A stretch of DNA of 64,000 bases, taken from NCBI RefSeq assembly GCF_053078305.1, contig NZ_CP166879.1. One strand, written 5' to 3'. The notes under the pieces were generated by a model that was not told the origin of the DNA, ran no database searches, and worked only from the letters and a program-made list of their open reading frames with translations. A program made the translations under genes and the position numbers. Shown one piece after another: positions 3,310-8,032 of the stretch. Position 1 is the first letter of the stretch, and each line of letters begins with the position of its first letter.

Positions 3310-4281
3310 TTACTTATCGATTTTGCTGATCAGATCCATCATTTTCAGTTTCGGATCGGTGGAAACCTTACGGACTTCCAGCTCAATACCGCGTGCATTC
3401 AGTTTTTTGAACGCCTCGATATCTTTTTCATCAACCGAAACCGCGTTATTCACCTGGGTTTTACCCTGACGGAATGCCATACCACCGACGTTAACAGAGG
3501 TGATTTTCACGCCGCCTTCAACGAGACGCTCTACATCTGTTGGGTTGGTAAATAACAGCATTACACGTTCGCCAGCATATTTCGGGTTGTTGTAGACGCG
3601 AATCATTTTGGCAACATCAACTACGTGTGCTGTTACGCCCGGAGGTGCAACCTGGGTGAGCAGTGTCTTACGAACGGTATCCGCAGCCACTTCATCACTA
3701 ACAACAATAATACGGGAGACATTGGTTTCTTTGGTCCAGCGGGTGGCGACCTGACCGTGAATCAGACGGTCGTCGATACGCGCAAGGCCAATAACCATGT
3801 AGTCGTTTGGCCCCATTGGTTTTGCCGGAGTTGGAGCCGATTTTGGTGCTGCGGCAGCGGGTGCTGGCGCGGCTTTTTCAACCGGTTTGGCTTTCAGTGC
3901 TTTCACGCCTTCACGGCCTGTTTCTACTGCCAGCGCAACCAGTTCATCAAAGCTTGGGTCATCATCACGAGCCATTAACGTTTCCACGAGCATTGGAATG
4001 TTAACGCCTGCAATGACTTCATAATGCTCTTTGTCGACGACAATGCGGCTGGCAGCATTGAACGGGCTGCCTCCCCATGTATCAACGAGAAACAGCACGC
4101 CTTTAGTGGTGTCGAGTTTTGCCAACTGAGCGTTGTACTTTTCAATCAGCGTTTCGGCATTTTCACCTGGAACGAAATCGATCCAGCCGACGTTTTCCTG
4201 CTCGCCTAACAGCATTTCTGCCGTTTTAAGCAACTGCTCTGCAGCCCAACCATGTGTGCCTATAACAATAGCAATGGTCAC
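3310..4281 (-). CDS. manX: PTS mannose transporter subunit IIAB (ManX)
   Basis: 323-aa two-domain protein with Ala/Pro-rich linker KAAPAPAAAAPKSAPTPAKP. Confidence 0.95.
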   Translation of the reverse strand: MTIAIVIGTHGWAAEQLLKTAEMLLGEQENVGWIDFVPGENAETLIEKYNAQLAKLDTTKGVLFLVDTWGGSPFNAASRIVVDKEHYEVIAGVNIPMLVETLMARDDDPSFDELVALAVETGREGVKALKAKPVEKAAPAPAAAAPKSAPTPAKPMGPNDYMVIGLARIDDRLIHGQVATRWTKETNVSRIIVVSDEVAADTVRKTLLTQVAPPGVTAHVVDVAKMIRVYNNPKYAGERVMLLFTNPTDVERLVEGGVKITSVNVGGMAFRQGKTQVNNAVSVDEKDIEAFKKLNARGIELEVRKVSTDPKLKMMDLISKIDK

Positions 4282-4398
4282 TTGCTACCTCCTTTATTAT
4301 CGTTAACACCTCAACGTGCCAGATGTATTTTTGAATCGTCGTCCACAATCGAATCGATTCAGATAAGGGCTACAACCAAAAACCCCTGCGTTTCGCGA

Positions 4399-4446
4399 TT
4401 TATTTTAGATATCGAAAAAATTATTTTATGTGATGAAGATCCGTAA
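4399..4446. promoter_or_regulatory. Candidate Mlc and CRP operators in the manX promoter region
   Basis: TTATTT-N9-AAAAAA (Mlc/NagC-like spacing) at 4400-4420 and TGTGA half-site at about 4428-4445; assignment by established knowledge that manXYZ is Mlc/CRP controlled. Confidence 0.4.
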
Positions 4447-4743
4447 TTTAACTTTCGATTAGCAGAAATTTCGAAAGGTAAAATATCCTTGTCACATTCG
4501 TTTGCAAAGGAAGGTAAATCTTTGCCAAATCAGAGGCGTCTCTGATATGTTTAACTCCCGTTTAACAACCATGGAGTATAGGGCAGTAGCCCGCAGTATG
4601 GATCGTCACCGACGTCATTTCAGCATCAGGCCTTTTAACGCCTGCCTTTCTGGCACTCTATGCCGCACCTTTCGTTTGCATTTTGTCGTTACGCCTGCAT
4701 TATTTCTGGCGTCGAATAGCTATTCCTTAAGCAGGAGCTTGTC

Positions 4744-6300
4744 ATGGAATTCTTAATGGACCCCTCAATTTGGGCGGGGCTACTCACGCTTGTTGTTCTC
4801 GAAATTGTGCTGGGTATCGATAACCTGGTCTTCATCGCCATTCTTGCTGACAAACTGCCGCCAAAACAACGCGATAAAGCGCGTTTGCTGGGGTTATCAC
4901 TGGCGCTGATTATGCGTCTGGGGCTGCTGTCGCTGATTTCATGGATGGTCACGCTGACCAAACCGCTATTTACCGTCATGGATTTCTCCTTCTCCGGACG
5001 CGACCTGATTATGTTGTTCGGGGGGATATTCTTGCTGTTCAAAGCAACAACCGAACTGCATGAACGGCTGGAAAACCGCGATCATGATTCCGGCCACGGT
5101 AAAGGCTACGCCAGTTTCTGGGTAGTCGTCACACAGATTGTCATCCTTGACGCCGTCTTCTCGTTGGATGCGGTAATTACTGCTGTAGGGATGGTTAACC
5201 ATCTGCCGGTGATGATGGCGGCGGTAGTGATTGCGATGGCGGTTATGTTGCTGGCATCCAAACCGCTGACGCGATTTGTTAACCAGCACCCCACGGTGGT
5301 GGTGCTCTGTCTGAGCTTCCTGTTAATGATTGGTCTGAGTCTGGTGGCAGAAGGTTTCGGTTTCCACATTCCGAAAGGTTACCTGTATGCCGCGATTGGC
5401 TTCTCGATCATCATCGAAGTGTTTAACCAGATTGCGCGTCGCAACTTTATTCGTCACCAGTCGACTTTGCCGCTGCGAGCGCGTACTGCCGATGCCATCC
5501 TGCGTTTGATGGGCGGGAAACGTCAGGCCAATGTTCAGCACGATGCCGATAACCCGATGCCGATGCCGATCCCGGAAGGTGCATTTGCCGAAGAAGAACG
5601 TTACATGATTAACGGCGTACTGACGCTGGCGTCGCGTTCTCTGCGCGGGATCATGACGCCGCGCGGTGAAATAAGCTGGGTTGACGCTAATCTCGGGGTC
5701 GATGAAATCCGCGAGCAGCTGCTCTCCTCACCGCACAGCCTGTTCCCGGTATGTCGCGGTGAACTGGATGAAATCATCGGAATCGTACGTGCTAAAGAAC
5801 TGCTGGTGGCGCTGGAAGAGGGCGTTGATGTGGCGGCGATTGCTTCGGCGTCTCCGGCGATTATCGTCCCTGAAACCCTCGATCCGATCAACCTGCTGGG
5901 CGTGCTGCGTCGTGCTCGCGGGAGCTTTGTTATCGTGACCAACGAGTTTGGTGTGGTACAAGGCTTGGTCACGCCGCTGGATGTGCTGGAAGCCATTGCG
6001 GGTGAATTCCCGGACGCTGACGAAACGCCGGAAATCATTACTGATGGTGACGGCTGGCTGGTAAAAGGCGGTACAGATTTGCATGCCTTGCAGCAGGCGC
6101 TTGATGTTGAGCACCTTGCCGATGACGATGATATCGCGACGGTCGCGGGCCTCGTGATCTCGGCAAATGGTCACATTCCCCGTGTGGGCGATGTGATTGA
6201 TGTAGGGCCACTGCATATCACCATCATTGAAGCCAATGATTATCGTGTTGATCTGGTTCGCATTGTTAAAGAGCAACCGGCGCACGATGAAGATGAGTAA
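4744..6300 (+). CDS. yoaE: TerC-family integral membrane protein with C-terminal CBS pair and CorC-type domain (YoaE)
   Basis: 518-aa ORF, N-terminal multi-TM region and C-terminal soluble domain. Confidence 0.9.
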
Positions 6301-6303
6301 GCG

Positions 6304-7902
6304 TTAACGTAACGGCATAATGGGCGTGATATGTCCATTATGCCGGGCGGGCGGCGGTTGGCTGCCCGCCAGCCATTTGGGAAAATCACGTAGCGGCATC
6401 GGCTGTGCGTACAAATACCCTTGCAAAATATGCACGCCATGACGGCGCAAATACTTCGCTTGTTCTTGCGTTTCCACGCCCTCCGCCACCAGTTCAATAT
6501 TCAGTCTTTGCCCCAGCGCGATGATGATATCGGTCACCGTCGAGTTAACCGCGTCAGAACCTATAGCTGCGGTAAATGACTTATCAATTTTCAGCACGTC
6601 AGGACGTAATGTTTCAAGCCAGGAAAATGAACTGTTGCCGGTGCCGAAGTCATCAATCGCCAGTTTGACATTTTTACGATGCAGCTCGCGGGCAATCCGA
6701 TAATCAACATCCAGTAAGGCATCGCGTTCGGTGATTTCGAGGATCAGTTGCTGAATCGGGTGAGCGCTAAACCAGTACTGATTGAGATCTTTTATCAGCA
6801 CACCACGGCGAAAATGGCTGGGTGCGACGTTAATGCCAACATGAAACTGACTACTCATTGGGAAAACATGGCGCTGACGAATGGTTTCTGCCATCACATA
6901 GCGGGTCAGTGGCACAATTAAATGATGTTCTTCCGCGATAGGAATAAACACATCCGGTGAAATCCAGCCCTGACGCGGATTGTTCCAGCGCAGCAAAATC
7001 TCTACACCAATACATTGCTGGCTGCGCGCATTAAGCAAAGGCTGACAGAACAATTCGAACTCATGTTGCGCCAGGCCCAGATTGATTTCGCGGGAAAAGC
7101 TCATCCGGTAAGCGGTCGCCAGCCAGGCGATGTAGCCCACCAGTAAACTTAGCAGCACCGCCAGCGGTAATTGTGTTGGAAGATAGTGCCATGCCAGCGC
7201 CGTAGCCCCCGGACCATTAACGTTAATGGTAAAAGGAAAGCGTTGCGAAGAAACCTGATAGTTTTCATTGTCTTCAGGTTGCGGAAGGGAATCTACCAGC
7301 CCATTACCATAGAGCAAATGCCGTTTGTCCACCGTCAGGCTGGCGCTACTGATTTGCGGCAGTTGTGGCTCAAGGAGCATTGCCGTCAGTAAGTCGATGT
7401 TAATCATCTCCATGACCCCAGCATTGCTACTGCCCGCTGCAGGCGTCCATTGAATCAAAACCGGACTGCCTTTAATCAGGGCACGGTCGATCGTCAGGCG
7501 TAAAAGTGGTTGCGGTGCAGGAAGTTCAGCCAGAATGTCCACGACGGGCACATTGCGATAACCAAAAATGCTGGAGCAATAGAGTGTGCCGTCTTGCACC
7601 AGGCCAATGGATCGCACAGTTTGGAGTTTTGCCGCCTGTTTACGTAATGGCAAATGGGCGACAGAGCAGGGCAGACCAATCAGCGGAAGCAAGACTTCGC
7701 TACCTGCCTGTAGGGGAAGCAGTACTTTATCTAATTCCTCTACAGCATGATTGGCGAATTGTACTACCCGTTGTTGATTTAAGTTACGCTGTGAAATAAA
7801 TCGCACGCTCAGGGTCGAAGCGAGCGTAACGAGTGCGCAAATCGTACAAACAATCATTCGATTACGGCGATAGGTTTTAATGATCCGTTGTGCTTTTTGC
7901 AT
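6304..7902 (-). CDS. pdeD: c-di-GMP phosphodiesterase PdeD (CSS-motif sensor + EAL domain)
   Basis: 532 aa from ATG 7900-7902; EAL signature in GVEILLRW; track ORF is 10 codons longer. Confidence 0.88.
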   Translation of the reverse strand: MQKAQRIIKTYRRNRMIVCTICALVTLASTLSVRFISQRNLNQQRVVQFANHAVEELDKVLLPLQAGSEVLLPLIGLPCSVAHLPLRKQAAKLQTVRSIGLVQDGTLYCSSIFGYRNVPVVDILAELPAPQPLLRLTIDRALIKGSPVLIQWTPAAGSSNAGVMEMINIDLLTAMLLEPQLPQISSASLTVDKRHLLYGNGLVDSLPQPEDNENYQVSSQRFPFTINVNGPGATALAWHYLPTQLPLAVLLSLLVGYIAWLATAYRMSFSREINLGLAQHEFELFCQPLLNARSQQCIGVEILLRWNNPRQGWISPDVFIPIAEEHHLIVPLTRYVMAETIRQRHVFPMSSQFHVGINVAPSHFRRGVLIKDLNQYWFSAHPIQQLILEITERDALLDVDYRIARELHRKNVKLAIDDFGTGNSSFSWLETLRPDVLKIDKSFTAAIGSDAVNSTVTDIIIALGQRLNIELVAEGVETQEQAKYLRRHGVHILQGYLYAQPMPLRDFPKWLAGSQPPPARHNGHITPIMPLR

Positions 7903-8032
7903 GCGGGCCACCCTGTAAGCGTATGGCGACAAACGCCTGACGCAACAGTGGAAGTGTAGTGGGGAATATTACAGCAGACGAGAAAGCGGGGATAAATTCG
8001 CCCATCCGTTGCAGATGGGCGAGTAAGAAGTA

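Follow-up and report, generated by a model that had tools for sequence, protein, structure and literature searches.

The yoaE leader contains the small gene yoaL

We analyzed a 64,000-nucleotide stretch of the E. coli chromosome (contig NZ_CP166879.1 of assembly GCF_053078305.1; hereafter the window) in which the genes manX and yoaE diverge from a spacer of 462 bp (positions 4282–4743). A preliminary description, made from the letters of the sequence, had recognized this arrangement correctly. It had also pointed to a long leader directly upstream of yoaE, and suggested that this leader might be a structured regulatory element of the kind that precedes other TerC- and MntP-family genes. We found that the leader holds an annotated protein-coding gene, yoaL (b4751), which the preliminary description had missed. 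The yoaL frame differs from that of yoaE, and the two genes overlap by 13 nt at the yoaE start, with the yoaL stop codon 10–12 nt inside yoaE. The expectation of a long regulatory leader was borne out: it measures at least 146 nt from the yoaL gene and ~185 nt by the predicted promoter. The whole spacer is identical to that of K-12 MG1655 at every base. By megablast it is present in 5,423 of 5,426 complete E. coli genomes, and yoaL is annotated beneath the spacer in every match listed. The features of the region are collected in Table 1.

Table 1 Features of the manX–yoaE region, in window coordinates
Feature	Position	Strand	Basis and remarks
manX coding sequence (PTS mannose IIAB)	3310..4281	-	GTG start at 4281; open reading frame (ORF) list and RefSeq annotation
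Putative Mlc/NagC-like operator TTATTT-N9-AAAAAA, manX control region	4400..4420	.	Sequence match
Putative CRP-like site TGTGA-N6-TCCGT for manX	4429..4444	.	Sequence; function predicted
CpxR box GCAAA-N5-GTAAA	4504..4518	+	Upstream of -35; full sequence GCAAA-GGAAG-GTAAA
Sigma-70 promoter of yoaL-yoaE	4522..4551	+	-35 TTGCCA 4522-4527, 18-nt spacer, extended -10 TGATATGTT 4543-4551; promoter scan
PhoP box TGTTTA-ACTCC-CGTTTA	4548..4564	+	Overlaps -10 and predicted +1
Shine-Dalgarno-like AGGAG (TGGAG in E. coli)	4572..4576	+	21 nt upstream of yoaL AUG; putative ribosome-binding role
Hairpin GGGC-AGUA-GCCC	4581..4592	+	Between AGGAG and yoaL AUG
yoaL (b4751), 52-codon leader ORF	4598..4756	+	RefSeq annotation; stop UAA 4754-4756
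Hairpin CGUC-ACC-GACG	4604..4614	+	yoaL codons 3-6 (Arg-His-Arg-Arg)
Hairpin HP1, CAGGC-8 nt-GCCUG	4627..4644	+	Within yoaL; covariation AU 36 / UA 8 / GC 6, among others
Hairpin HP2, GGCA-CUCUA-UGCC	4652..4664	+	Within yoaL; closing pair covaries GC 27 / AU 23 / GU 7
Hairpin HP3, ACGCC-12 nt-GGCGU	4691..4712	+	Within yoaL; compensatory CG-to-UA changes
yoaE Shine-Dalgarno AGGAG	4733..4737	+	6 nt before ATG; GGAG invariant in all leaders
yoaE / mgpA (TerC + CBS pair + CorC_HlyC cation transport protein, 518 aa)	4744..6300	+	ORF list, annotation, Pfam domains of homologues

The yoaL–yoaE leader and its main regulators are already published. YoaL is translated and has been detected as a small protein (bioRxiv 10.1101/511675). 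In the same study, Weaver et al. (2019) fused the full 5′ untranslated region (UTR), yoaL and the first yoaE codons to lacZ behind an arabinose-induced heterologous promoter; changing the yoaL start codon to a stop codon strongly reduced yoaE-lacZ expression. A 2025 mBio paper renamed YoaE as MgpA, found that it protects Salmonella against excess Mg2+, and reported that it is needed for survival in egg white and for virulence (PMC12421838). In that work an mgpA'-'lacZ fusion was induced by 10 mM Mg2+, at neutral or alkaline pH. New here are the pattern of conservation, the covarying hairpins, and repression by PhoP at the -10 element as a reading of the Mg2+ induction.

Two further observations concern the gene itself. 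The K-12 YoaL protein record is at version.2, so that its start was revised at some point, and a 19-codon ORF in the yoaE frame lies within yoaL, from an ATG at 4660 to a TAG at 4717–4719. More generally, the locus is a reminder for genome scanning that a long "empty" leader may contain an annotated small ORF.

Conservation of the yoaL frame

We compared the leaders of 80 YoaE-encoding loci from Enterobacteriaceae genomes, which yielded 77 distinct sequences. The search for proteins similar to E. coli YoaE stayed within close relatives and did not extend to other families; Erwiniaceae examples were added through a 17-mer scan of metagenomes and homologue look-ups. Most hits of the 17-mer scan were chance matches in GC-rich DNA, but ~16 were genuine, and each genuine copy with enough sequence for a judgement preceded a yoaE homologue. 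Within E. coli genomes the conserved 5′ block of the leader (described below) is single-copy, with a second copy in none. In Erwinia amylovora (our locus L202) the gene upstream of yoaE is an rlmA-like methyltransferase gene rather than manX, and a yoaL-type leader is still kept. Since manX has been replaced there and the leader retained, the leader belongs with yoaE rather than with the control region of manX.

All usable loci carry an ORF that begins Met-Asp-Arg-His-Arg-Arg, a few with Pro at position 3; in Erwinia amylovora and Mixta it begins Met-Asp-Cys-His-Arg-Ser. The ORF is 40–55 codons long. Its AUG is invariant and its frame is free of stop codons in 77 of 77 leaders, compared with 15/77 and 0/77 in the two remaining frames. 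The distance from the yoaL ATG to the yoaE ATG takes nine values, all equal to 2 modulo 3, and the frame relation is thus kept despite insertions and deletions. In 77 of 79 leaders the yoaL stop falls 10–12 nt beyond the yoaE ATG; in the remaining pair of leaders the stop is either just ahead of the ATG or 9 nt beyond it. Pantoea-like loci and Mixta (Erwiniaceae) have an overlapping UAAUG or UGAUG instead. In Enterobacteriaceae the exact position of the stop is forced by the Leu-Met codons of YoaE. The leader therefore has the features of a coupled leader ORF: an invariant start, an open frame, a stop by the downstream start and a preserved frame relation.

The amino acid sequence behaves differently. 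Divergence at codon positions 1/2/3, calculated from 42 leaders of equal length, is 0.46/0.43/0.41 in yoaL codons 8–42. These values lack coding periodicity and are close to the synonymous rate of yoaE (0.45), for which the full pattern is 0.05/0.02/0.45. In yoaL codons 2–7 the values are 0/0.02/0.24. As read from these alignments, what selection maintains is an open frame in constant register that terminates at the yoaE start, and the amino acids past the first six residues appear unconstrained. Together, the divergence and the frame pattern are characteristic of a leader ORF that acts in cis rather than of a small protein with a function of its own.

A nearly invariant block at the start of yoaL

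The most conserved part of the leader is a block of ~50 nt (4572–4615) that is almost invariant and reads AGGAG, 4 nt, GGGC-loop-GCCC, 5 nt, AUG GAY CGU CAC CGA CGY. The element GGAGTATAGGGCAGTAGCCC, listed in the preliminary description, is present at 4573–4592, and GGAGUAUAGGGCAGUAGCCC falls in the leader's most conserved part.

The yoaL AUG has no ribosome-binding site nearby; what is conserved is the AGGAG 21 nt upstream, with a hairpin between the two. In the Shine-Dalgarno-like element, G16, G17 and G19 are invariant across the 77 leaders and A15 and A18 are at least 90 % conserved, and the element is kept in Erwiniaceae too. Most genera read AGGAG here, but E. coli and its nearest relatives read TGGAG, a difference that creates an extra in-frame ATG (4571) within the element. 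The intervening GGGC/GCCC hairpin is paired in 100 % of cells. Its loop varies, and its stem variants all preserve pairing (five G-U changes and one compensatory U-A change).

A second small hairpin, CGUC-ACC-GACG, is formed by the Arg codons that follow the AUG. In Enterobacteriaceae none of its positions varies, not even the fourfold-degenerate third positions of Arg3 (CGU) and Arg5 (CGA); in Erwinia amylovora and Mixta it is partly broken.

Hairpins and base composition of the yoaL body

Three further hairpins (HP1–HP3) recur at the same relative positions within yoaL although their sequences differ. On a sequence-based alignment 84.5 % of the hairpin cells are paired, compared with 33–43 % when the partners are slid, and double-sided changes number 106 against 23–57; none of 500 shuffles reached the observed score. 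RNAalifold recovered the same set independently from 40 ungapped leaders. From the gapped alignment of 77 sequences it gave a weak consensus (-7.2 kcal/mol), because the variable region is not aligned by structure. Folding energies in windows over the hairpins, taken across about 70–76 species, are lower than in shuffled sequence (z = -1.67 for HP1, -1.30 for HP2 and a modest -1.01 for HP3), with yoaE coding controls at -0.2 to -0.6. HP2 is missing from lineages of several genera that have a 12-nt deletion.

The 3′ arm of HP1 (UGCC, 4643–4646) could also pair with the 5′ arm of HP2 (GGCA, 4652–4655) to form an alternative middle hairpin, since the arms are built from GGC/GCC repeats. A chain of such alternative pairings among the GGC/GCC arms was considered and dropped, HP2 being deleted in several genera. 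Two long-range pairings were also rejected. The 3′ partner of AGGAGU (4572–4577) with AUUCCU (4722–4727) changes in Klebsiella and Raoultella without a matching 5′ change, and the pairs between 4573–4577 and 4760–4763 that RNAalifold proposed from the 40 leaders link two conserved segments that do not covary. For the two initiation regions we obtained opening energies of ~10–11 kcal/mol; these could not be calibrated and were left unused.

The body of yoaL is pyrimidine-rich (C 32 %, T 31 %, G 20 %), and C exceeds G in 100 % of sequences. Over ~115 nt of the leader the C/G ratio is 1.65, against 0.84 in the yoaE coding sequence. The leader thus has a rut-type composition (at least 80 nt C-rich and G-poor), with conserved hairpins also present, and its composition is as expected of a Rho loading site.

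The preliminary description had called the segment 4500–4743 GC-rich, which it is not: its GC content is 0.44–0.52, near the 0.47–0.58 of the flanking genes. It seems GC-rich because the promoter zone alongside (4350–4500) is AT-rich (0.26–0.37).

Promoter and regulator sites

A promoter scan placed a sigma-70 promoter upstream of yoaL, with the -10 hexamer TATGTT preceded by TG. The extended -10 pattern TGnTAnnnT is found in 78 of 78 Enterobacteriaceae leaders, and occurs as TGATACATT in Pantoea-type Erwiniaceae loci. Because this extended -10 is present and kept across genera, we infer that transcription starts at about 4557–4560, probably near 4558, which would give the ~185-nt leader. Literature searches did not find a mapped yoaE transcription start.

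Just upstream of the -35 lies a tandem CpxR box, one mismatch from GTAAA-N5-GTAAA, and the TTGCAAA of this region is kept in the alignment. In Salmonella, where CpxR activates yoaE, CpxR-P bound the homologous site (-235 to -262) and gave a footprint there, and a cpxR mutant showed weaker induction of yoaE (PMC6952189).

A PhoP box of the form (T/G)GTTTA-N5-(T/G)GTTTA covers the -10 and the predicted start. It is one base off the strict consensus, with a C opening the second half-site, and binding at this copy is predicted from its sequence. In Shigella, an identical box was gel-shifted and footprinted by PhoP-P, and the ratio of yoaE expression in a phoPQ mutant to that in the wild type was 7.14 by array and 3.18 by qRT-PCR (PMC5775216). 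Since yoaE is higher in the mutant, PhoP represses it. The place of the box, over the -10 and the start, is a repressor position and fits repression by PhoP. Two discrepancies in these reports should be mentioned. PMC6952189 states that the Shigella study found yoaE upregulated by PhoP, while the Shigella table (7.14 mutant/wild-type) means repression; and the Shigella footprint, given as -107 to -83 (PMC5775216), does not match the distance of the box from the yoaE ATG, -196 to -180.

Relief of PhoP repression could explain why high Mg2+ induces yoaE, and the contribution of alkaline pH would come through CpxR. High Mg2+ turns PhoPQ off and alkaline pH activates Cpx, and both inducing signals therefore have plausible transcriptional routes. 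The mBio paper did not consider a role of PhoP in the Mg2+ induction (PMC12421838). The position of the PhoP box and the Shigella phoPQ data offer a simple and testable account of a regulatory question that the 2025 paper had left open.

A translated leader with probable coupling to yoaE

We consider it likely that ~4558–4743 is the 5′ leader of a yoaL–yoaE mRNA and acts as a translated regulatory leader of the coupling type; good expression of yoaE requires translation of yoaL. The mRNA would start at the sigma-70 promoter with its extended -10, activated by CpxR from the box just upstream of the -35 and repressed by PhoP from the box over the -10 and start. Ribosomes would begin at the yoaL AUG, traverse the leader and stop 10–12 nt inside yoaE, or often at UAAUG or UGAUG in Erwiniaceae. 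What would matter is translation in cis, not the YoaL peptide. Terminating ribosomes may be handed over to the yoaE start, and ribosomes covering the C-rich, G-poor leader may prevent early Rho-dependent termination. The result narrows the options for MgpA regulation: the body of the peptide appears irrelevant, translation through to the yoaE start is conserved, and a riboswitch is unlikely.

Several points weigh against so simple a picture. The invariant 5′ block and the conserved N-terminal codons exceed what simple coupling needs, which hints at an extra control step. The simplest coupling mechanism, a stable hairpin over the yoaE ribosome-binding site, is not supported: a hairpin hiding that site appears in the E. 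coli fold (4722–4750), but across species the region folds like shuffled sequence (z = +0.31). Moreover, yoaE has a strong and invariant ribosome-binding site of its own, and the sequence alone leaves its dependence on yoaL unexplained. The involvement of Rho is proposed from base composition, and our literature searches found no report of Rho termination in the yoaE leader. The transcription start near 4558 is likewise predicted from the promoter sequence. Finally, Weaver et al. wrote that the original yoaL start lay 13 codons upstream of the likely start (bioRxiv 10.1101/511675), a figure that we could not reconcile with the in-frame ATGs at 4547 and 4571, which are 17 and 9 codons upstream of 4598.

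The alternative that survives best shares the translated leader and shifts the weight within it. The dependence on yoaL could be mainly transcriptional polarity: without ribosomes, Rho would load on the pyrimidine-rich leader and terminate before or early in yoaE, and re-initiation would be minor. The excess of C over G in every leader is what this explanation would predict, and the poor support for a structure hiding the yoaE ribosome-binding site also speaks for it. Its evidence is compositional, however, and the tight, conserved overlap of stop and start is a hallmark of ribosome hand-over that blocking Rho would not need; conserved hairpins would in addition lower the access of Rho. We regard it as somewhat unlikely that polarity is the main cause.

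A different alternative takes the 5′ block as its starting point, since so invariant a block raises the possibility that the entry of ribosomes into yoaL is a regulated step. The block would be a gate, in which the hairpin brings the distant ribosome-binding site near the AUG, or early elongation is tuned by the nascent N-terminus or by the rare CGA codon that never varies, or both. The ribosome traffic on yoaL, and hence the amount of YoaE, would then depend on a cellular signal, for instance Mg2+, polyamines, pH or the supply of arginine. The near-identity of this block in two bacterial families, within a leader that otherwise changes freely, argues for such a gate, as does its fixed geometry (4 nt, hairpin, 5 nt) in front of an AUG that has no close ribosome-binding site. 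Codons 2–7 have a coding-type pattern, yet the third positions of Arg3 and Arg5 never change. The authors of the mBio paper, for their part, write that it is not known how mgpA is regulated and name YoaL as a possible factor (PMC12421838). On the other side, no signal acting after transcription has been demonstrated, the 5′ block folds like shuffled sequence (z = -0.29), and Erwinia amylovora and Mixta, whose ORF starts Met-Asp-Cys-His-Arg-Ser, lack an intact Arg codon hairpin. The conservation could also reflect an initiation region that is unusual but constitutive. On balance we think a regulated gate unlikely. Less likely again is a more specific version, in which the block is a previously unrecognized cis sensor that adjusts ribosome entry or clearance at the yoaL start to cytoplasmic cations (Mg2+, polyamines), to the arginine supply or to pH. 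If it were true, this sensor would set the post-transcriptional production of the MgpA cation-stress transporter.

Returning to coupling as the preferred reading, we asked what is left of the structured leader suggested at the outset, for which the preliminary description had looked to conserved structure in homologous leaders. Such structure is there, in the form of small covarying hairpins, and the leader is regulatory; it does not look like a riboswitch, being translated and of the coupling type. A ligand-sensing riboswitch, for instance one related to the yybP-ykoY Mn2+ element of other TerC/MntP genes, would suit a long leader with covarying hairpins in front of a gene for a TerC-domain cation transporter that is induced by high Mg2+ and alkaline pH (PMC12421838). 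The covariance-model scan that had been proposed for yybP-ykoY and others gave no such result: an Rfam scan of 3500–5500 with permissive filters (E ≤ 10, 4227 families) contained no match to yybP-ykoY (RF00080) or any other family in 4282–4743. We also found no extra folding stability in the E. coli leader (z = +0.57 and +0.73 against dinucleotide shuffles), and the mean over 77 species is z = -0.74, with 5 % below -2. No ligand-binding core was found, as every column of the leader alignment varies in the stretch from yoaL codon 8 up to the yoaE ribosome-binding site. The hairpins are independent stems of 4–7 bp with variable loops and unconserved junction nucleotides, and HP2 is dispensable in several lineages. 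The leader RNA is translated along its whole length, and its effect on yoaE requires translation (bioRxiv 10.1101/511675). With PhoP and CpxR at hand for both inducing signals, a riboswitch is very improbable.

Equally improbable is that YoaL is a functional small protein that works in trans, perhaps as a binding partner of YoaE or of some other membrane protein, with its position an ordinary operon layout: it is indeed translated and detected (bioRxiv 10.1101/511675) and its first six residues are conserved, but residues 8–42 diverge at a neutral rate without codon periodicity, identity is 36 % at the amino-acid level against 57 % at the nucleotide level, the length varies from 40 to 55 residues, NCBIfam holds no model matching YoaL that we could find, and the conservation of the C-terminus is imposed by the yoaE ribosome-binding site and start, which overlap it.

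Comparison with known leaders

The closest parallels are the E. coli small ORFs (smORFs) of the pairs pssL-pssA, baxL-baxA, argL-argF and evgL-evgA, each a small ORF in another frame that overlaps the start of the main gene (bioRxiv 10.1101/511675). There too, blocking translation of the smORF alters expression of the main gene, and yoaL-yoaE was one of the tested pairs. Within this set the positive effect of yoaL is the strongest, and the effects of baxL and argL are negative (bioRxiv 10.1101/511675). The invariant 5′ block, the unconstrained body and the covarying hairpins of yoaL are not described in bioRxiv 10.1101/511675.

The AGGAG and hairpin in front of yoaL resemble the bridging seen in phage T4 genes 38 and 25, a role that in yoaL is suggested by the conserved geometry and the pair-preserving variants. 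In those phage genes a small, stable hairpin lies between the AUG and a ribosome-binding site ~20 nt away and would bring the two effectively closer.

The pairs tnaC-tnaA, speFL-speF and mdtU-mdtJI consist of leader ORFs that counter Rho through ligand-dependent stalling of the ribosome, and their sensor residues are conserved. As in these systems, a translated leader that is C-rich and G-poor controls the gene downstream, and two of the three concern amine or polyamine metabolism or export, near the excess-cation theme of MgpA. In yoaL, by contrast, the first six codons alone are conserved, and no stalling or ligand is known.

Another leader ORF before a Mg2+-related transporter is mgtL. It is short and proline-rich and ends far upstream of mgtA; mgtA is controlled by alternative stem-loops, with Rho-dependent termination as part of the mechanism, and PhoP activates its promoter. 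The mgtL-mgtA leader of Salmonella and E. coli (PMC12421838) resembles that of yoaE in its link to PhoP/PhoQ and its C-rich composition. Unlike mgtL, yoaL runs into the gene it precedes and lacks a proline run, and the logic is inverted: PhoP represses, so that yoaE is on at high Mg2+. We rejected an mgtL/mgtA-type Mg2+ leader on these differences. A classical attenuation leader of the trpL/hisL type was rejected as well. Terminator prediction found no intrinsic terminator-like site in 4200–4850, and yoaL does not end before yoaE but runs into the structural gene.

The yoaE leader has in common with that of alx a considerable length, a position before a TerC-family membrane protein, and expression that responds to metals or alkaline pH. 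In E. coli the yybP-ykoY Mn2+ riboswitch (RF00080) precedes alx (TerC family) and mntP. The yoaE leader differs in being translated and in lacking a multi-helix conserved core, and no match to yybP-ykoY in sequence or structure was found.

The manX side and neighboring genes

On the manX side of the spacer, the preliminary description had noted an Mlc-like motif TTATTT-N9-AAAAAA and a TGTGA half-site. Both are present. The motif at 4400–4420 is the single match in the 64-kb window, where 0.04 would be expected by chance, and the half-site lies at 4429–4433. We take the motif to be an Mlc/NagC site; it overlaps the likely manX -10, TAAAAT (the reverse complement of 4402–4407). From this -10 and the CRP-like site, we infer that manX transcription starts near 4396, with a 5′ UTR of ~115 nt. 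The center of the CRP-like site would then be ~40 bp upstream of the start. The control block TTATGTGATGAAGATCCGTAATTT (within 4400–4444) is kept across many Enterobacteriaceae genera in the alignment.

Some database entries for YoaE (P0001, P0012, P0062 and P0217) are 555–605 aa long rather than the usual ~519. Probably their gene calls run on into the leader, or a frameshift has fused them to yoaL. At the other end of yoaE, a minus-strand ORF at 6304–7932, probably pdeD (the name is from the K-12 record), converges on it with ~3 nt between the two stop codons; pdeD-yoaE is among the candidate pairs with overlapping transcripts (PMC12288877).

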